64,000 nucleotides of DNA from the NCBI GenBank assembly GCA_001687465.1, contig LVLI01000172.1, forward strand, positions 62,001 to 126,000, in the 5' to 3' direction. This document shows, piece by piece, positions 15,585 through 62,223 of the stretch. The notes under the pieces were generated by a model. The model saw nothing but the letters and a program-made list of their open reading frames with translations, was not told the DNA's origin and did not search any database. The position numbers were made by a program, and so were the translations under genes. Positions within the stretch are counted from its first letter, which is position 1. Every line of letters starts with the position of its first letter. The stretch is from Halocafeteria seosinensis (lineage: Eukaryota).

Positions 15585-16882
15585 CTACGCTTTCCCGTAC
15601 GTGATTGGCCTCTCACCTTCTAGGCTACCTAATATCTTCTCGACGCCGTCGTCAATCATTTGCCGAGCAATCGACGCACCAAAGTGTTCGGCACATGAGT
15701 TAAGCTCATCGTCCACTTCCAGCGAACAAAGTCCCGTCAAAGAATGACGACTTCCTGATTGGTGCGATTTGAAGTAATTCCTCTGTGCCATAGCATTGCG
15801 CAAAGTATCTGTTATCCCTGTGATATCACCTTGTTTCTCACATGTCATCCTTTCCTTCCCATCTCTCGATAATACAACAGCCGAAAAACTAATTCGCAAT
15901 GAATCTGTAGCACTGTCTCCTTGAGGACACGATACCGAGGTGTGTACTCCGATGGGAATCTGGCATCCGCCTTGAAGCGTCTTCAGAAAGCCGCGCTCAG
16001 CCAAGCACCTAGCTGTTGATTCTAAATTCATCGCGGCTTTGGAAACTGCAATTGCCTCAATATCATCGATTCGGCATTCGATACCTAACGCTCCCTGGCT
16101 AACTCCGTAAGGGAACTCCTCAGCTGGTAGCTTCCTGGTGATTCTGTCGTAGAATTCGAGTCGCTCTAAACCGGCTGTAGCTAACACTATAGCATCGTAT
16201 TGGCCAATAGGGTCATCCAACTTTTTTAGCCGAGTGTTCAAATTTCCTCGTATTGTATCTACTCTAAGTTGGGGATAATAATGTCGAATGATGGCTTCGC
16301 GGCGCAGTGAACTAGTCCCAACCAAAGATCCATTAGGTAACTCTGCTAGCGACGGAAACTTTCCTTCATGCTTTGAGGAAAGGACGAATGCATCCTCTGG
16401 AGCCGCGCTCTGGATAACATCATACAAAGTCAATGTCTTAGCAATTATTGTACATGAACGCAAGGTCGGGGTACTTACCTCTGATATGGCCGAGAGTATC
16501 AAGCCTTCAGGAAGCGAAGTTGGGACATCCTTTAAAGAATGAACCACCATATCCACCTCTCTCGCCAGTAAGAGTGCTTCCAGTTCCTTCGTAAAAAGCC
16601 CAGGATTATTACCTACTAGTTTCGCCAAATGCTCCTGCAATTGCTCATCTCCCCGGGTAGGTTTAGTTTTGATTTCGAAAGTAAGTTCCGGGTAAGCACT
16701 CTGCGGTGCCAATCACAGGAATCATTTCGGAATCATTGTAAGTTCCATCCACTGTTAAGAAGCATTGATGTGTAAATAAGGGGCTCACATACCTCTAATA
16801 ATGCTTTTACAGTTCTTGTTTGGGCGAGGGCAAGGTTGCTCTCCCGCGACCCAAGGACGAAGTGTTTTCTCGTGGTGCTCAT
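15585..16882 (-). CDS. hemC: Porphobilinogen deaminase (hydroxymethylbilane synthase), multi-exon
   Basis: Exon 1 MSTTRKHFVLGSRESNLALAQT; then HSLKDVPT, GTSSLRR, IRGNLNTRLKKLD and LQGGCQIPIG (cofactor-binding Cys). Confidence 0.95.
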
Positions 16883-29145: not shown

Positions 29146-29613
29146 GGTACATAGAGACACGCAGAACTAGACAAAATGATCGATCCCTCAATGGAGCGAG
29201 ACGTGAAAGGCAACTGTAGAGCGTCTCCAAAGCACGCTTTGCAGCGTGTGTCCTGTATGGAACTTCGATTCAAGGCTCTAACTGTTGTGTGAATTGTCTA
29301 CTAAAATAGCAGTTTTACACAAAGACATTGACTGCCATGAGCGTGCATGGATTATCAAACTTGCTTTGGGAGCATTGTAATCGCCTTATTGGACGTGGAT
29401 GCCTTAGATTCAACTTTGGGCCTTGTGGACAAGTTGTGGCGGAATCCGTTACTGAGACTGGCGCATTCAACCTACCTCGTCATTTTGTAGCCCGTTGCTC
29501 ACTTTTCCCAAAGTTTGATTCGTTATATAGGGGCTCTTTGAGTGTATGCCCATACGACGAAGTCGTACGTAAATAGTATTTCTTGGGCGACATGCGTGCG
29601 TAAGATAGAGAGC

Positions 29614-32538
29614 ATGGGAAGCAGAGATAGGAGGTATCGGTCGTATACCGATACTATCGGCAGTACACTGCGTCTGCATGGGGATCTTCGGGATAATGAA
29701 GCAGAAGTCAAACATCTTCAGGGCATGGGGGCCATCGAATCCGCAGACCAAGAGAAGCCAGACATCTCCGTGGACTTTAAGAGATGGAATATGCACACTT
29801 TGGCAGGAAAGTATCATACATTTCATATTAAGAACAAATACCCCATTCCCGGAGCTGCTATAGCGGATGACTTCTACAGAAAGCATCAGATAGATGACAC
29901 GACCAAAGTACTTGAACGGCTTCGAGATGAAGACACTGTTATCGCTCGAAAAATCGACTCGAAGGTGCAGGTGCACGAGATGACGGAGTTGTCAATGCCA
30001 CAACCTCATTGGATGACAGTAGCAGAACAAACGGAAAAGGTTCTTCAAGATAGACAAAAGCGCTACGAAAGCATAATTGACAGGAAGACCGAATTCATCG
30101 GAGAGCCAAAACTAGTGGCCAGAGTGTTTACTTTGATCAAAGAGAGGAATATCGAGGAAGTAAAGACTCTGTTGACGCAAGGAGAACTCAATGTTAATAT
30201 GTGTGATGAACGTATGCATACAACCTTACTAATGCAAGCATGCAGTGCAGGAGTTCTGCCGCTGGTTGAGGTAAGCAGTTTGGTGCATTCTAGATTACTA
30301 AAACACTGACAGCTAAACCTGCTGCTGCAGATATTCTTACAATTTGGAGCGGATCCTGATTTAGTGAATATTTCAGGGAACTGCGCGCTGCATTTTTCGT
30401 GGGATTCCTGGCTTCAGGTAAATCCACACTTGCCACGGAAAAAATATCAATATAAGGTGGTTTGCAAAATCGTAGAATTATTGGCAAGTTTCGGTGCTAA
30501 TCCTAATATACAGCAATGCGACGGATGGTCGCCGCTGCATTTCGCGGCAATGTATGGACACGAAGAAGCAATTCTTACTTTGCTGAGAACAGGAGCAGAT
30601 GTCACAATCAAGGACGACGATGGAAGAGATGCTCCCGGAATTGCATCCACATTAGTTGAACGGGGATTTGGAAATCCGAAGAAGAGAGAAGCTGCCATTG
30701 GGCTGTTGAACAATTGGCAAGTTATCCAAAAAGAACAGGAGATACGCAACTTTCGCTTAGCTTGGCAGCTGACGTTAGAGAAAAACATACGGGAAATAAA
30801 ACATGCTAACGACATTTCACAGAGAGAAACACAAGTTGGATCTCCTCCCAAAGCCGGTTCAATAGACTTGATGTCGCGCGAAGGAGCTGGAGGACCTGTT
30901 TTCGTTGCTCATCGCGACGCTGATGAGCGGATGTGGGGAGAGAGTACCAACATCAAGCAAATGTTCAAAGATTTTGAGCTAAATCGCAAACTAAAAGGTT
31001 TAGAACATAAAGAAGGTCTGAAAGTAAGCGAGTACAACAAAACACTTCCTGTCCTGCCAAATCAGCAGCAACGGAGGTACGAGCAGGAAACTCGAGAAGT
31101 AGTCTCCTTTGATATTACGTCAGCTTCACCAGGTAGAATGGGCTCTCGCAAAAATACGAAATCGAGTTCAAAAATGCATGATCCGACAATAGAGGACGAA
31201 GAAGTCCAAAAGAGAAGAGCTAGGGCTCAGTGGAAAGAGCACTCTACCTCGACTGCTCCGTCTACAAATGAACTGGTTCGCAGACAAGCCAATGAGGCGG
31301 CCAACATGCTAGCTAGTCAAAATAAAGTAATCAGCGCTGTTAACATGGCAGAGAACGAGTCAGAGAAAGATATTATGAAAAAAGTAAATTTGATGGAAGA
31401 AACCCAGGATGCAATGGAACGCCACCACAAGAAGCAGAAAGCTCAGCTCAAGGAACTTGAACAAGCTAGCGAACAAGTGTCAATAGAAGCTGTTGAAAAG
31501 GATGCAAGCATTCCGAAGAGCCACAGAAATGCTTTCGTTGCTGTTCGCGGTTTATCGAACAGACTAAAGAACGGGGCGAGGAATGTGCTAGAAGACACGT
31601 ATGGCTCTGAAGTTTCCAAGAACATCATGGAGATGACAACAGGTGAAGTGTATCAGCGGAGAAAAACGCAAAATTCCATCCTAAGAAAACCTTGGAGATA
31701 CAGATGTGACCATCGAACGAAAATAGGCTTACCAAATGAGCCAGTGGAAGGATCCATTCCGGGTGTCTCTGCAAATGCCCGAGAAAAAATTAAAGCAGCC
31801 CGACAGGAGAAAGCAGAAAAAGAAGCCGCCTTGGAGGTCGATAACGCCAGTCTCCGCGTTGTACCGCCCGAAGACAACGTTCGCCGAAAGAAACAAACGA
31901 CTCAAGACGATGCTGTCAACAGTGATAGTTTATCCTCCATGGTAGGGGCATATTCCCTGGAGCATAAACGGATGATGGACGGGGAGTTCAAGAAGAAGTC
32001 AATGGATAGTGCGCTGTTACCCTATGAAGGAGACAAAGACCAGCAACAGCTGAAAAAATCAGCAGAAGAGCGCAGCAGGGCATTGCAATCGCTTGGGTCA
32101 GGGTCTAGCGATGTCCCCACTCCATCGGTTGCCTCACAACCATCTGAAACAGCACCACTGAAACGAAAGCCTCCACATGTTCCGAAACTAGTGCCTGCTA
32201 AGCTCCAGGATCAGCTATATGGTGATGCGAGTATGCTGAACGACGAGCCGAGTGCGCTTTCTGCGCAGTCGTTGCATGATCGTGGAGGACTCAAACTCGG
32301 AGAGGGGCAGAGCCTGATGGATCTCGCAAAATTTGACACCGTCGAGTTAACATCGGTAAACCGTGAGGCAGTGACCCCAAATTACGGAAAACGATACGTA
32401 AGGAGGAACACTAAAACGAAGAAGAACTACTACAACCTCGTTCACAAGCAGCCAAAGAAGACAACGGAGATCTTCGGAAAGATTGAAGAACCGTGGGAAT
32501 ATGACGTCTTCAATGCGAAGCTGGGTAACGTCGATTGA
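29614..32538 (+). CDS. Ankyrin-repeat protein with long charged C-terminal region (intron 30271-30330; true start uncertain)
   Basis: Ankyrin motifs TTLLMQAC, GNCALHFS and GWSPLHFAAMYGHEEAILTLLRTGADVTIKD. Confidence 0.75.
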
Positions 32539-39159: not shown

Positions 39160-39850
39160 ATGCCGGAAATCGAGAAAACAAAAGCACCTGCAGGGGGGCA
39201 TGCGGAAGCAAACCAAAAGGATGGGGCGGAAGCGACCCCTGTTAGCGCTTCTCAAGATGTGAATCTGCTTTTGACCCCGTCCGAGTTTTTCCCGACGGAT
39301 CACCACCTGCTTCACCAGGCTTTGAGGTACGTCACTCATTATTGCTCTTCTCGAGCTAGCATATGTCTGTAGGTTTGTCTATGTGACGTTGTTTGTATAC
39401 AGTGGTTCGGAAAAGTTAGAACGCTATGATATTGTCTGGTTTCCGGAGCACAAAGTTGTTCAAGCCCGAGTACTGTTTGGCCAAAACTTGAGTGGTCATC
39501 CCGGCATTGTACACGGGGGAGCCATCGCAAGTGTGTTCGATGACGTATTTGGTGTGCTATTTTTTGCGTTAAGGATGGGGACAGGCTTTACTGCTAACCT
39601 TAATGTAAACTATAAACTTCCAATCCCGGCGGGAAGAGACGTGCTGTACCAAGTTGAGTTGCAGAAGGTAGAAGGTAGAAAGGTGCAACTCAAAGCGTTT
39701 ATTTACGATGCGGACAATACCTCAAGGAAGCTCGCTGATGCCACTGCATTGTTCATAATGAAGAATGTCCCATCGAGTGGCGATGCCATTCATAGAATGG
39801 AGTCTCACCTAGCGGACCTGGAAACGGAGGCGTATCGCCGCCATTGGTAA
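39160..39850 (+). CDS. Hotdog-fold acyl-CoA thioesterase (THEM4/PaaI-like), copy 1 (2 exons)
   Basis: GHPGIVHGGAIASVFDD, FTANLNVNYK and EGRKV; intron after HQALR. Confidence 0.9.
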
Positions 39851-40246: not shown

Positions 40247-43200
40247 ATGGAGAGGCCTTATCGCCTACTGGGGCGCCAGACACTCTTGGCGGAGGTGAGG
40301 AAGATACACGGTGTCATTTGCCGCAAGGAAAGCGCGAGACGGCGTATTGACGCATTTCTGAAGAAGTACTCCATCCAACATGTAGACAACATTCGGAGCG
40401 AGTCTGTACGTATACTTCTTGGCTTTGAGGTGGCGTGCAAAGAAATTTCGCAACGTAGCATGTACAGAAGGGTGGAACGCTGCTGCACTACGCTCTTCTT
40501 CTGGAATTCCTCGATCTTGCCCGGCTCCTAATCGATGTATACAAAGCAGATCCTCATATCCGAATTTGGGTACGTCGTGACTCAATTATGAAATGGGGAT
40601 GGACACGTAGTGGTACCAATCAGTGCTGCCCGGCAGACGGGGGATACATCAGTACACATTGCCAGCCGGACGGGCAACTGTAAGGCTCTCACAATGCTTG
40701 TGGATGAATACAAAGTCGAGCCGAACACCCCAGCCTCGGTAAGTAGCATTGGGACAGAGTCCACTTGATCTAGCCCACGTGGAAGGATTACATGCACTTC
40801 TTCCAGAATGGGAAGACTGCGCTACATCATGCGGCTTCAAGCGGTAAGATGGAATCTGCAAAATTGCTTATGGAAAACTATAAAGCTGACTGCAAACTGG
40901 GCGACAACGTGAGTCCATGATATGAAGCTTGGTAGGCTGGTAAAAAAATACATCGCTCTCCGTGGTCTCAGTTCGGCTGTACTCCATTACATGATGCTGC
41001 CGCACATGGAAGGAAGGAATTGCTCCAGCAACTGATCACAAGCAGTGATGCTGCTCTTTGCACTAGTAGGACACAGGTACGATGGTCTGTTATCTCACTA
41101 CATACTCGTGAGTCTTAATGGGTTGACTCTTGGCAGGAGGGTCTAACACCGTTGCATTTGGCATCCAAGGAAGGACAGACAGCAGTGGTTGACCTCATGC
41201 TTAAGTACTACATCAAAGATGCTAACATTAAAAGTCAGGTTAGTCTAAGGACGTGCAGATTGAATTTTAGACTGATGTGGTGCTCTACTTGTCCTTACTA
41301 TGGTGGTGCAGCATGGCTGGACCCCGTTGCACATGGCCGCTCGAGCCGGACACATGAAAGTCATTCAAACACTGATAGATACGCATCAAGCAGATAAACA
41401 GTGCCAAAGTGTGGTACGTGGCCACTTGTGGATACAAAGATTCGCTTGAGAACCGGTAGTACAGTATGCTCATCTGTGGCCCTTTCAATTTACAGGATGA
41501 GTTTACACCTTTGCATTTAGCGGCACTGAACGGGTATAGCCATGTTGTCCAGTTGTTTGCGGGAGATTACAAGGTGGATGTCAACGTTGTGTCTCAGGTA
41601 TTTTCATGAGTTCAGTCGTGTAGACAATGGTCCAGAAGTGCAACCTGACATTTTATTTCATGTATGTCCAGGGGGGATGGACTGCTCTTCATCTAGCATG
41701 TCAAAATGGGCATTCGAATGTAGCACGAATGCTTACGGAGAAATACTCGGCGAATAGCATCCCGCGAAGCCAGGTAAGAGAGGGCCCCATTTTCGCTTCA
41801 GGTACCGCTGAATTGAGCTGATCATCTTTACATGTTGAGTCTTCAGCTTGGTTTGACTCCATTACACTTGGCGTCTGCGGGCGGCCATCAAGACACCATA
41901 AGAATGTTAATAGAGGAGTTTGATGGGGACGTCAATAGTACAAGTTCTGTAAGTTGAAATTGCTGCTGATGAGCTGTCTCCGCACATGCACTTGCCCATT
42001 TTGCACTCACGAGACAGTTTGGGGCTACACCCTTGCATTTGGCATCTCAAGGAGGTCATAAGAAAGCCATAAGAATGCTTGTTGATGAATATAGGGCGAG
42101 CCCAAAGGCAAAGGTGGTACGTTGCATCAAAACCTGTTGGCGTCAAACGGAGCAGTGCTGCATTTGGGATCGGATTGCAGAACGGCTTGTCCTGCCTGCA
42201 TTTGGCATGTATCCGTGGACATTCGGATTCTATCCGCCTTCTTATAAATGAGTATAGCGTGGATCCGCATACACCGGAAGAAAACGTTAGTCGGAGTATT
42301 GGAACCTTGATGTTGTGTTGCGATGCTATGGTTAAGAGTACCATGTGATGTGCAGTGCTCGAAGACACCCTTACATCTCGCTTGCGAGAATGGGCATGTG
42401 GCGGTCGTTCGACTCTTGATTAACGAATATGGTGTTGATCCATGTACTAAGGATAGTGTGAGTGAGCATCCACTTCTCATTGGCAATCGTGAGTCCCTCT
42501 TTTATTGTACTACTCCTATATCCAGAGTGGCTGTATCCCGTCCGATTCTGTCACCGGTAGAGACTCCAGTTCTATAGTGGCGTTCCTGACACCTGTAATG
42601 GAAGACGAAAGACCCCTATCTGCTATATCGCGTAGCCAAACAATGCTGTACTCCCGGCATCCGAATTGCTCCAGAGAAATCTTGGATCTGGTTGCCAATA
42701 TATCGAGGAAAGGCAGACATGCCATCCAGGAATTCTTAGCCTCAAGCAATGAAGTTCAAGCACTTCGCTCCCTGGAAGAATTGGAAGATTATCTCGTTCG
42801 TAGCCTTCTTGATGATCGAGGCGAACGTGAGCAGTTATTAACGGATATTATCAAACTTGGAACAACAGAAGACAATATTGCAAACGTTCAGGGTGTCCTA
42901 CGGCAAGTCAGCAACTGTAACGGTTCGCAGCTCGCTGCAGTTTGCGAGGAGAGAGGACTTTTTCTGAAAGCTGCTCAGATGTACGTCAGTGTTGATGACG
43001 TGGGGCGCTGTCTACAAAAGGCGGAAAACGTTCCCTACAGTGCCTTATCCAATCTCTTGTCAAAGTACAACTCCAGAGAAGCGAAGCAACTTCTTTGCAT
43101 GATAGCTCAAGCTGACTCATTTGACATTTGTGGGTTTCTTATTAAATTCATTCAGGAGAATGGACCCTCTGCGTGTGACTCCCTCGTGGGGCTATGCCAG

Positions 43201-46200
43201 GACGAGACGAGCGCACAGTGCCTTATTGGAAGTGCCGAACATGAGCCCAATGGTAGCCCTTGTCCCAAGCAACTTAATTTGTCTCGCTTGGAAAGCTGTC
43301 ATTTCGAAGCCCAAGAATTGCGTCGAAGCCTTTCAGAGCAAGATTTCCTATATCCAATTTTACTGCACTGTCTTAAGATATTCCAAGATCTTAGAGCAAG
43401 CATCGAGCGGGAGAAGCGAATGTTGGGCGAAGGACGAACCATCCTGCAGAGGGCGCAAGCAGAATTGGCAGATCGCCGCCACCATTTGCATGAAACCGTT
43501 CGATGTAATTTAGAAGCCCATGAGTCACATCTTCAGCCAGACGAGATCGACAAACTGGTGGCTCAGAGAGAGCAAGCGGCTTTGTACTTGCGCACCACTC
43601 TGACTGACATGATTGAACGAGCACAACAGCTCCAAACACTGGAGCAAAAAGCTGTGACACTATTTGATTTCCTGTCACGGTTTGGAAAGAAAATGGGTGA
43701 GCCTCTGGATGAGGAGCTTCGAGGCGAACAGGATCAACATACCGTAGTCGGAGATGAAGGGCATTCAAGAGGGAAGGAAGATTGCATTCAGCAGCTTGAC
43801 ATAAAGGTGCACTTGGAGAAAATTCATCATCTGAGGCATCGGCAGGAGGTGTTGGTTAACTATTGCGAAGAGAAATTGAATTCTGAAAATGTGAACCTTC
43901 GGCAACTCTCTAGAGACTTTGCACACGCTAGGCGTTCGGTATTAAGTCTTACTGAGTGCTCTTATCAGTGTCTTGCAACGTTCAAAACTGCATGGACAGA
44001 AACCTGGGACCCTCGTAACGGTGGTCTCCTAGGGGATGAAAAAGTGCCACAACTGTTGGCGGACTGGGATATAAAGTTGAAACAAGAGCACAAGATTCTA
44101 GAGCAATTTGAAAACGCAAAACAACAATTGAAGACGCTGAAGGAGATCGAACCGAAACTCCAGCAGTTGTATGATGAACGGGATGACTTGCAGAATGAAC
44201 TCAACAAAGCACGGAGAAAGCAGCAACGGTCGAGAGTCTCTCTGCTGCAGGAGAAATTAACTGCCATGAATGACGAAACTGATACAGCTGAGAAACACAA
44301 AGAAGAGATCTATGAAATGTTTTCTACTGGTCCCATCCAGGGATGCTTCCCAGAACTATCATACCAAGCTGCACATATCAGAGACGTGGCGACTAACCTT
44401 GCTGAGGTAGATGTGGATGGCCTGGATTGGAATGTTTCCTTGGAGGACTTTATTGTGGACAAGGAGATCTATTATGGTGGGTCCCGTCTATTAATTTGTC
44501 GAAACTCGATTGGGGTGTCATCACGAAACTGGGCGTTGAAGGAGATTCCATTAAGTATGGGTAACTCCAATTCTTTCAATAGTCGGTTCCGCAGGGAGTA
44601 TCGCGCACTGCGTGCATTCCGTCGCCATCCGCTTCTAATGCAGGTAGAAAGAGCTTTTATTGATGAACGAACGAATAATGCGTATTTGCAAATGCCGTAC
44701 TACGAACGTGGGAATCTTCGCTCATGGGTCGAAGGGATGCAGGAAGAAGTGAACAGTCATCAGCAGCAGGCTGGTGCTACTTCAGAGGAATGGTGGCAAA
44801 ATCTTCAAGTGTATTTTCGCCAAATCCTTCATGCATTGAGCTATGTCCACTCTTGTGGCTTTGCCCATCGGGATATGAAACCTGAGAACGTATTAATAGC
44901 GGAGGAAGGGAGACTAGTTATCACTGATTTCGATGTCTGCCGACCGACGCACACCTGTGCCGGCGCGAACATGACGACAACAACGACCACCAACTTTGGT
45001 ATACAAGGCACAATGGGATATGCAGCGCCTGAGTCCTTCCATGTTGAGAAACGACACCAATATCCAGAAGCGTTAGACGCCTGGTCAGTCGGAGTCATGC
45101 TATTGGAAGTAATTTGTGGAAAGCGGTTCGAGTGGCATAATGATCGCCAACAGCTTGTTGATCGTGCCAGCGGAGTTCCCTTCAAGCTTCCTTCGCATCA
45201 TTTGGATGAGGTCCAGATGGAAGCGTTCGATATTGCTTCTAAACTGACGAAACCCGAAGCTCAGAACCGTATGACAATCGACGAAGCCCTCTGTTCCTCC
45301 TTTTTTAGCGGGCCATTATTCTGCAGAGGGGCAATGGAAAAGAGCAGTTTAGATACCACACTTGAAATGGTCACGGATCATTTTAACATACTAAGGAAAA
45401 CGCGATCCACTGCGTCAACGCGTAAGATATCAATCCAAACCCACAGAAAAACATCTGGAGAAGATGCCGACGATGCTTCTGAGAGAGAAAAATCATGCTA
45501 TGCAATACTTCGCAAAATTAATGAAATGGAGGGTGCAGACATTACCAAGAAATGGGAATTTGTGATGGAAGAAGAGACATGGATGCTGTCCTCAGTTGTG
45601 CGCCAGGTAGTTGTTCCCTCCGTAGTTAGAAAGAAGTTTGGTCCCCTGTTAGTTTGTGGAACTGCTGAAGCCGAAGCAGAGGAGCAATCAGAAACCAAGG
45701 AGAGTGACTCCTTGCAACTTTTTGGATTTTACTCAGTTCCAACCGATAGCACCATCTCTGGGGAAAGGCGATGGCTGTTTCGTGCTCTTGGGCGTCTTCT
45801 ATACAAATGTATGCTTGAAAGCATTCTATTTCCGGTATCCTTGGCACCTTCCGTCTGCCGATGCCTCCTGGGACTCGACAAAATTGAGAACCCGTTGTAT
45901 ATTTCGCTTGGGCAAGCTCACGTGATGGCTTTACTGAAAGCGTTCAAGCCAGACTTCCTTAACTACTACCGCTCTATCCTGATACATTCCTATGGAAAAG
46001 GCTCTGAACACTTAACTGTGGACATGGTTCCTGGCTTCGATGCGAACATGGCGGAGGAGCACCTAGTGGAAGATACGCCTTTATCGGACGGGAACAAGGA
46101 GCGTGTCATTTTGGGAGCTATCGAGCAACAACTCGTTCGTTCAAGGAGGGATAATCTGTTGGAGCTCACTCAAGGATTCAGAGAGTGGGCGGAAGAGTGT

Positions 46201-46890
46201 GGTAGCCTTTCGGCATTGAGCCGCCTGTCAGAATGGCATATTAACAGCCTCTTTTTTGAAAATGACTTTATAGACCGAAAATCCTTAATGAAGACGCTAG
46301 AGTGGGACGATTCCTGGGTAGAGAAAGAGCGCAGTATAATGCAGGACCACTTTAAGTCGCTTTTCGAGAAACTTCCTGAGACAAGCATGCGTATGTTTCT
46401 TTTGAAGTCGACAGGGTCTTTGCGGATGGACACCTCAAACGCGTCTTGGACTCTAATTGTCCGAATTCCCAGATGTAAGACAAAGAAGGATACAGCAAAC
46501 ATATATTTTTCGTCTGCAAACAAGGCCATGTTTACTCCTTTTTTCTCAAACGTTGATGATTTTGGTAATGCTCTCTTGAAATCGCTCTCTCAGAGCGACG
46601 TTGAAACAGATTCTGAAAGCATGAATGTTGCAGAACAAGCCCGGCTGTTTCGAGTCCTGCGGGAAGCTGGAGATATTCGCTCCGGAGCCGTTTTTAGCTG
46701 CGGCAACTGTGGGTTCGCTTATGCTGTAGGTGAATGCGGTGGTCCTATGGAGATTGGATCATGCCCCAAGTGCGGTTCTCACATCGGGGGGCAACAACAC
46801 AAAGCTGTAGCGGGGAATTGTTATCGTCCTGACCTCGGTGATGCTGCCGCCGCTGCCTACCCCGGTGCAGCTCCTGCTCAAGAAGAATAA
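40247..46890 (+). CDS. Multidomain ankyrin(x12)-coiled coil-protein kinase-HECT-like-RZ finger protein, about 1916 aa, 14 exons
   Basis: Exons: 40247-40405, 40468-40569, 40637-40738, 40807-40908, 40972-41076, 41137-41238, 41312-41413, 41496-41597, 41672-41773, 41847-41948, 42018-42116, 42181-42285, 42356-42457, 42526-46890. All junctions are GT-AG and phase 0. Contains TPLH ankyrin motifs, kinase HRDMKPEN, HECT-like FRALGRLL..KSTGS and the C-terminal CGNC..VGECGGPM..CPKC..IGGQQH. Confidence 0.85.
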
Positions 46891-47212: not shown

Positions 47213-48156
47213 ATGGCGAGCAGGACCTATGGGCTGCTGAGCAGCTTGAGACCCATCGTGGCGGCTGGTACTGTGGCGACGACAACGGCATGGACGAGCA
47301 CCTCCAGGACTCAGGAATCGCAGAAGAATCTACCCAGTGTCGTTCGACAAGACGTGAATATCTCGAATCGTGAATGGCTGCAAATTGCTGAAGTTCTGCT
47401 TGATAACGATAAACTAGGCGATACCTCGAAAAGGAAGCAGCTGGCAACGCAGATATGCCGTCATGTCCAATCACAAATACCGTCAGCGGACACTTCCAAG
47501 AAGCGTCCGGACAAGTCAGTGCCTTCGGCTAACACTACAGTGGATCCAAAGAGAGACTTTCACCTTTCATTGAGTATGTCAGAATTCTTTCCCACCCAAC
47601 AGCATTTACTGCACCAAGCCTTAAGGTACCGTTTTGTTCCTCAAAATAAGCCGAGTTCGCACCTTCCGCACTGATGTTTTCTGCCTACTGCAGTGGTTCC
47701 GACAAATTAGAGAAATACGATGTAGTATGGTATCCTCGGCAGCAGCTCATTCAAGCTAAGGTTCGCTTTGGGCAGCATCTCAGTGGACATCCCGGTATTG
47801 TTCATGGGGGAGCTATTGCCAGTGTGTTTGATGATGCCTTTGGTGTACTCTTCTTCTCTCTTAGACTGGGCACAGGCTTCACTGCCAACTTAAATGTCAA
47901 CTATCGAAGCCCTATATATGCTGGTAGAGATGTGCTTTATCAAGTGGAACTAGAGGAGGTAGACGGCAAGAAAGTCAGGCTGAAGGCCTCAGCTTATGAT
48001 GCTAATGACACTTCCCACAAGTACGCTGACGCAACAGCTTTATTTATAGTGAAACATGTACCGTCTAGCAATGACGTCTTAGGAAAGATGAACGAGTATC
48101 TTAGTGAATTAGAGGAGGAAGCTCTACAGAGTAGGAAAGAGAAAGGAGGGCAGTAG
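47213..48156 (+). CDS. Hotdog-fold acyl-CoA thioesterase (THEM4/PaaI-like), copy 2, with presequence-like N-terminus (2 exons)
   Basis: Identical catalytic segment GHPGIVHGGAIASVFDD and the same intron position as copy 1. N-terminus MASRTYGLLSSLRPIVAAG. Confidence 0.9.
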
Positions 48157-61822: not shown

Positions 61823-62107
61823 TTCGGGGACCACCGTAGTTAAATGCTCATATACACGCATTACAGTAATGCACCTCATATTGTTTTGATATGCCGGCGA
61901 CGTGTCTTACCGGATGTAGCCTCTAGACTGTACACTTTACTACGTATTAACATTTAAGCAGTTTCTATGTTATTTCCCTGGCGGAGTTCATTACTCCTGC
62001 TTGCTGAGACAACGTTAAGAGCACGCTAGCGTTGACTGGGTATTATAGAGGCCCGCTTCTCATTGTCTCATCGAGTGGTTCCTGTGGTTCAACGAGGCGA
62101 GTGTTAA

Positions 62108-62223
62108 ATTTCCACTTAGCCGGTAGGCCATAAATAATATACACTACTACCACTGGTACTAGTGCAACTACATTTCCACATAGTCGGTAGGCCATAAATA
62201 ATACACACTACTACTACCCTGGT
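62108..62223. repeat. Two imperfect ~50-nt direct repeats, period 64 nt
   Basis: ATTTCCACTTAGCCGGTAGGCCATAAATAATATACACTACTACCACTGGT (62108) and ATTTCCACATAGTCGGTAGGCCATAAATAATACACACTACTACTACCCTGGT (62172). Confidence 0.85.

Follow-up and report, generated by a model that had tools for sequence, protein, structure and literature searches.

One gene in a 64,000-nucleotide stretch of the Halocafeteria seosinensis genome (GenBank assembly GCA_001687465.1, contig LVLI01000172.1, positions 62,001 to 126,000; hereafter the window) joins, in a single chain of 1,916 residues, twelve ankyrin repeats, a long helical region, a Ser/Thr-type kinase, a complete HECT fold without its catalytic cysteine and an RZ zinc finger. 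The gene, at 40247-46890, is real and spliced, and its product is neither an ortholog of RNF213 or ZNFX1 nor an active HECT ligase; judged by the residues it has kept, it probably works like an RZ ligase. We propose that it ligates ubiquitin by transthiolation, catalysis having passed from the dead HECT to the RZ finger (Cys1866/His1887), probably in cell-autonomous defence, a reading to which, taken whole, we give an even chance. Its parts stand at different levels: from the sequence, an active RZ ligase is quite likely; a role in defence, argued by analogy, is slightly favored; and the HECT N-lobe as dock for the ubiquitin-conjugating enzyme (E2) falls a little short of evenly balanced.

The gene and its domains

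A model built from GT..AG splice sites gives 14 exons on the forward strand, with a coding sequence of 5,751 nt and zero internal stops. Exon 1 (40247..40405, residues 1-53) holds the start codon and is covered by contigs from 40158, with a joint from 40405 to 40468; exons 2-13 (40468..42457, residues 54-462), of 99-105 nt each, hold the ankyrin repeats, one to an exon; and exon 14 (42526..46890, 4,365 nt), encoding residues 463-1916 and the stop, lies within an open frame of 1,465 codons (42493-46890). All 13 introns are in phase 0 and are 60-82 nt long. Four public runs carry the stretch. X1, a genomic run from which the stretch may come, has a single contig that contains all of it with the introns in place; X2, X3 and X4 come from one sample of one study and are not recorded as RNA. 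In contigs of X2 and X3, 10 of the 13 introns (1-4 and 8-13) are skipped, and both runs have the joint from 42457 to 42526, so that the ankyrin exons are indeed spliced to the 42526 exon, as had been assumed when the gene was read from the sequence alone. Introns 1 and 2 are also shown by X4, and for introns 5-7 the support consists of loose contig ends of 8-14 nt that match the neighboring exon. Since no single spliced contig reaches from the ankyrins to the RZ finger, it is the overlap of these pieces that points to a single full-length transcript.

The architecture that the sequence-only reading had put forward, from ankyrins to RZ in about 1,916 residues, is borne out by the gene model, by Pfam and by fold searches. 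A Pfam ankyrin family is found at E<0.01 in 11 of the 12 repeat exons, and the one missed, exon 3, fits the ankyrin pattern; contig joints link the array. Between the array and the kinase, a helical stretch at 42769..43029 (residues 544-630) resembles the clathrin/VPS heavy-chain repeat and serves as a lead only (PF00637, E 1.8e-5, 25 bits, below the cut-off of 29.6); its ESM Atlas score is 0.93, and a sequence search of the PDB gave no clathrin match for it. As for the coiled coil that had also been claimed, long helices, probably of that kind, occupy 43350..44325, as judged from a low-confidence single-sequence model (predicted local distance difference test, pLDDT, 42.9) and a simple heptad scan. 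In the PDB the helical region also gave a weak match, to proteasome AAA lids (E 0.0018), which we put down to chance. The kinase (44440..45306, residues 1101-1389; Pfam Pkinase E 2.8e-37) retains all its catalytic residues, namely K1134, E1153, the HRD D1245, K1247, N1250 and the APE E1298, and its DFG motif reads DFD at 1263-1265 with the Asp kept. An AlphaFold model of the last 833 residues, from the kinase to the end (pLDDT 74.5; predicted template modeling score 0.49), matches kinases in its kinase part at Z about 25.

A HECT fold without its cysteine, and an RZ finger after it

The HECT domain of the window protein is complete in fold and dead in its active site. Pfam HECT recognizes it at E 4.9e-9 (36.7 bits against a cut-off of 23.9), and the corresponding part of the AlphaFold model matches the HECT of AREL1 (Z 25.2 over 343 residues, rmsd, the root-mean-square deviation, 4.2, 15% identity) and HUWE1 (Z 24.4, rmsd 5.2, 349 aligned), with HUWE1 listed by Foldseek as well; used as an ESM Atlas query, the HECT-RZ part found generic HECT clusters only, all under 0.9. 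Because the match to AREL1 runs over 343 residues, the domain is placed at 45337..46587 (residues 1400-1816), so the lobe pair earlier put at about 45500-46590 holds as a domain and begins slightly sooner. In the catalytic-cysteine column, defined by four relatives that keep the residue, the window protein has Ala1793 (46516-46518), in agreement with the earlier description of the domain as a pseudo-HECT; the closest cysteine to the lost active site, Cys1779, is 14 residues off. Nor is the HECT the end of the chain, since 100 residues follow it and these include the RZ finger.

That finger (46681..46818) had been recognized from its C-terminal motif, and the identification is secure: the Pfam ZnF_RZ-type family (PF20173) scores 50.8 bits against a cut-off of 27 (E 1.3e-13). 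It aligns with RNF213 and is 39% identical over 82 residues to a ZNFX1 homolog. In mouse RNF213, zinc is held by C4451, H4455, C4471 and C4474, the nucleophile is C4462 and the base H4483 (PMC12075652; 10.1101/2021.05.10.443411), and the reference catalytic pairs are C4462/C4516 with H4483/H4537 in RNF213 and C1860 with H1881 in ZNFX1 (PMC12075652; 10.1101/2021.05.10.443411; 10.1101/2025.10.14.682297). Aligned to these, the window finger has C1854, C1857, C1875 and C1878 around a nucleophile, C1866, and a base, H1887, and the distances from the nucleophile to the last two zinc cysteines and to the base (+9, +12, +21) equal those of mouse RNF213. A helix predicted at 46600..46665 by the AlphaFold model lies ahead of the finger, as a ubiquitin-binding helix does in ZNFX1 (10.1101/2025.10.14.682297). 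In the alignment with the ZNFX1 homolog V1839 falls on an Ile 14 residues ahead of the first ligand, and it likely corresponds to the ubiquitin-binding Ile (I1835) of human ZNFX1.

A family of kinase-HECT-RZ proteins

The relatives come from HMMER, which was run with the kinase-to-end part as query against 1.84 billion representatives and listed 150 matches; word-index protein searches are nearly blind to the family, one giving 1 match (a ZNFX1) and another 2. A HECT-like region is present in 35 of the 150, of which 30 were examined, the other five being fragments or truncated models. Of these 30, 17 have a full RZ motif, nucleophile and base included, and none of the 15 of them in the alignment has the HECT cysteine. 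The converse is seen in four listed matches that keep the cysteine and stop after the HECT without an RZ finger: Leishmania HECT12 and proteins of Phytomonas, Gloeochaete and Cymbomonas. A HECT tree of 30 rows splits the 26 Cys-less from the 4 Cys-bearing members at 100/100, and a kinase tree of 30 rows gives the same split at 100/97; to conclude that the HECT died only once, one has to place the root on the Cys-bearing side. The branch of the window protein is long and lacks a near neighbor, and the Cys-less HECTs evolve fast. Three Cys-less members end in another module instead of the finger, P0025 and P0028 in a RING and P0026 in an RBR-like RING1-Rcat module. Since these modules sit where others have RZ, the C-terminal slot reads as a place for a ubiquitin ligase (E3) module, and since the trees place the RING-ending members within groups of RZ-bearing ones, the Cys-less group looks to have had RZ from the start and to have replaced or lost it at times.

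Among the listed matches, the alga Mesostigma viride contributes eight gene models, of which one is truncated, one has a degenerate RZ and six have the finger intact; in four of the six the order is ankyrin, kinase, HECT, RZ. The earlier statement that the architecture is like that of no described protein thus needs dividing: a full-text literature search, with subscription papers and supplements outside its scope, found no description of the kinase-HECT-RZ core, and yet the Mesostigma models share it, and since it is present in automatic annotations it is undescribed rather than unseen. The other named members among the listed matches are [Myrmecia] bisecta and Cymbomonas, the latter with a degenerate RZ; the remainder are metagenomic. 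The sequence-only reading was also to fall if the architecture proved to belong to a widespread single-copy housekeeping gene; instead, the relatives are expanded and variable. The variation lies in their N-termini. Mesostigma P0161 begins with a clathrin terminal-domain propeller and ankyrins, and P0006 and P0057 are fused to a whole USP7 copy that lacks the canonical Cys and His boxes. These USP7-like and clathrin N-termini are candidate integrated decoys. The "variable repeat sensor" of the sequence-only reading finds its variability here, among relatives, and not in the window gene itself: its ankyrin exons are mutually 37-60% identical in nucleotides, which gives no hint that repeats are still being shuffled, and recent exon shuffling was rejected.

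Metagenomes extend the family. A scan with P0017 gave 37 loci, 13 of which hold HECT-RZ parts of the core, and on the four loci compared a trebouxiophyte member (P0009) had the top score of ten family queries. Two assemblies hold three loci each, 66-94% identical in nucleotides and several with stops or frameshifts. Upstream of the core, ankyrin repeats on separate exons were found in 4 of 7 loci scanned, with an intron one codon off the position in the window gene. Four scanned loci with RZ only are ZNFX1 homologs. Three side observations follow: an algal member (L002:2700-4000) has three ankyrin exons and then an exon that looks PH-like by eye, with no Pfam match, and an in-frame stop at about 9114; a C2 domain lies upstream of another kinase-HECT-RZ locus (L027:86-457) and only putatively belongs to the same gene; and L026, L028 (GC 18-28%) and L013 are ZNFX1 homologs with intact RZ in single long open reading frames, on AT-rich and other contigs of microbial-eukaryote-like character. 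Viral contigs queried with P0005 and with the window HECT-RZ part yielded no relative, which argues against a viral origin.

Proposed mechanism and its rivals

The fold of the HECT is kept, its cysteine is lost and an RZ finger is gained, and the simplest account of these three facts is a change of active site, in which an ancestral kinase-HECT ligase would have gained, at its C-terminus, an RZ finger to which ubiquitin would now be transferred. As we picture it, the ankyrin array and the clathrin-like helices would bind a trigger, which might be a microbial surface or protein, or else an effector sent against a host protein that the N-terminus mimics. Binding would bring the coiled coils together and switch the kinase, which would in turn gate the ligase; gating by the kinase is proposed by analogy with the AAA+ core that gates RNF213 and the helicase that gates ZNFX1, ATP-dependent control being noted for both known RZ ligases. 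The retained N-lobe, the part of a HECT that contains the E2-binding subdomain, may hold the E2~ubiquitin, from which ubiquitin would pass to Cys1866 on the helix just past the dead C-lobe and then to the trigger, or to the protein itself, marking it for removal. Defence is suggested because the known RZ ligases are immune proteins and because the relatives show expansion, decay and domain capture. A bolder version makes of the family a third ancient class of RZ ligase, an RZ grafted on an E2-docking dead HECT and gated by the kinase, its members acting in algae and other protists as polymorphic immune receptors that sense through exon-modular ankyrins and carry dead USP7 or clathrin as decoys; this we regard as doubtful. 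Several observations weigh against one part or another of the proposed ligase and are taken up here with the alternative that each favors. Two bear on the kinase step: the GxGxxG loop is degenerate in the window kinase and across the family, and three relatives have damaged kinase motifs.

The alternative that survives best concerns the dock. The RZ ligase may work with no help from the HECT, which would then be a vestigial spacer or a scaffold that binds ubiquitin or substrate, as in G2E3 (PMC3673628); we consider this tentative, if a serious contender. The isolated RZ fragment of ZNFX1 auto-ubiquitylates alone (10.1101/2025.10.14.682297), so a HECT dock may not be needed; the RING- and RBR-ending members keep the dead HECT despite having an E2 site of their own; the Cys-less HECTs evolve fast; and part of the N-lobe subdomain, whose sequence is retained in most members, is gone in P0009. 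Set against this, even distant members retain the fold in full, both lobes included. Moreover, full-length RNF213 and ZNFX1 each use an E2 dock separate from the finger; in the window protein the N-lobe is the one evident candidate.

The second alternative keeps the chemistry and gives up the defence. A kinase-regulated RZ ligase might serve signaling, membrane traffic or protein quality control, with the N-termini as targeting modules and not decoys, and we hold this unlikely, although by no means negligible. Clathrin and USP7 are proteins of traffic and proteostasis, and their fusions to the family come from automatic gene models. In the HMMER scan the window protein has no close paralog, the best listed matches being about 30-35% identical, a weak hint that the gene is single copy here; the ankyrin exons of the window gene are old; the contig joints show the gene transcribed in the present sample; and the apparent paralogs in the metagenomes may reflect strain differences or faults of assembly. 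The Cys-bearing TPR-kinase-HECT relative, HECT12 of Leishmania, affects growth and differentiation, not defence (PMC7647121). What tips us towards defence is that the patchy distribution, lineage-specific expansion, broken copies and dead captured domains of the relatives fit conflict genes better, and that both characterized RZ ligases are immune factors (PMC12075652; 10.1101/2025.10.14.682297).

Least probable, and in our view improbable, is that the window copy is no longer a ligase, the loss of a His having crippled the finger and left an ankyrin-targeted kinase or scaffold: the C-H-C-C zinc set is incomplete, with three Cys kept and Phe1859 in the His column, the His ligand is essential in RNF213 and ZNFX1, whose mutants are inactive (PMC12075652; 10.1101/2021.05.10.443411; 10.1101/2025.10.14.682297), and degenerate fingers do occur in the family (P0014, P0018, P0019, P0067), but the window protein has a Cys 2-3 residues past the first ligand, as do 5 of 17 RZ relatives and all of the 12 algal loci examined, and none of these has lost the nucleophile or the base; the pattern looks like a conserved all-Cys variant and not decay. 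In the window finger it is probably Cys1857 that replaces the missing ligand.

Relation to known ligases and receptors

To our knowledge only two RZ ligases have been characterized, both large animal immune enzymes switched by an ATP-using module. The window protein resembles RNF213 in an RZ with nucleophile Cys and base His and in having a nucleotide-using module in the chain; moreover, the RING of the one and the HECT of the other are both conventional E3 domains of which neither is the site of transthiolation. The resemblance is confined to a finger of roughly 45 residues, and the window protein lacks the AAA+ core, the E3 shell, the CTD dock and the His ligand. ZNFX1 shares the C-terminal RZ and the helix predicted ahead of it, at the identity given above for its homolog, and occurs in unicellular eukaryotes, so that RZ outside animals was already known (10.1101/2025.10.14.682297). 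In place of its helicase, NFX1 fingers and Z-RING/Miz E2 site, the window protein has a kinase and a dead HECT. Pfam searches of all exons found neither a dynein-like AAA+ core nor a superfamily 1 helicase or NFX1 fingers, the chain being accounted for by other domains.

A second comparison is with the kinase-HECT ligases, Leishmania HECT12 (LmjF.35.4000) and the Gloeochaete and Cymbomonas proteins, which have the same plan of a repeat or other N-terminus, a coiled coil and a kinase directly followed by the HECT. Their catalytic Cys is intact and nothing follows the HECT, whereas the window family has lost the Cys and gained RZ. G2E3, with its PHD/RING-like fingers at the N-terminus, has neither kinase nor RZ. 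Its likeness lies in a HECT that does not function and in adjoining zinc fingers that do the ligase work; the paper that describes this case of a dead HECT with active fingers also reports fusions of kinase and HECT, in the form of "GL-Bikonta" HECTs with kinase domains, which may belong with the kinase-HECT ligases (PMC3673628).

For the receptor side of the proposal, the nearest parallels are the plant nucleotide-binding leucine-rich repeat receptors (NLRs) with integrated decoys and the exon-modular repeat receptors of brown algae. Like these, the family combines a fixed signaling core with swapped or captured N-termini, one repeat per exon and, in the relatives, birth and death of copies. 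Unlike them, the window protein has no NB-ARC, NACHT or ROC domain, its predicted outputs being a kinase and a ubiquitin ligase.

The family adds a third RZ chassis, of kinase and dead HECT, that is compact at about 830 residues from the kinase to the end. It could be used to ask how ubiquitin is delivered to RZ, whether an all-Cys finger is functional and whether a HECT lobe can hand ubiquitin to an active site that is not its own. Should the defence role prove true, it would give algae and other protists a named family of intracellular receptors and place RZ-type ubiquitin immunity far outside animals.

Neighboring genes and other observations

The kinase-HECT-RZ gene lies between two tandem 4HBT thioesterase paralogs on the same strand, one upstream (39160..39850, identified by Pfam and by contig joints) and one downstream (47213..48156), 69% identical in amino acids over 174 residues; they share an intron position and both are spliced in X2-X4. 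The arrangement suggests that the gene was inserted into an old tandem duplication or captured by it. A mobile element and recent horizontal transfer were considered and rejected, since GC at third codon positions in exon 14 is 0.47, against 0.44-0.55 in five neighbors; no terminal repeats were found, and the two intergenic flanks share matches of at most 10 nt.

Pfam finds nothing but ankyrins in a second, unrelated ankyrin gene (29542-32538, forward strand), whose product ends in a long, charged stretch of low complexity. Self-BLAST of the window shows a 49-nt tandem duplicate at 62105-62217 (90% identity) and a 70-nt dispersed repeat at 487-556 and 2734-2803 (79%). UBE2D-like E2 genes are common in giant-virus contigs (an estimated 370 or so stretches, from L038 onward), and their products could counter or use host ligases of the kinase-HECT-RZ kind. 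Finally, the best named relatives of a porphobilinogen deaminase at 15585-16712 (reverse strand) are cyanobacterial, at about 50% identity (53% or less), and a metagenomic match reaches 70%; the gene is of possible interest for the origin of the heme pathway.

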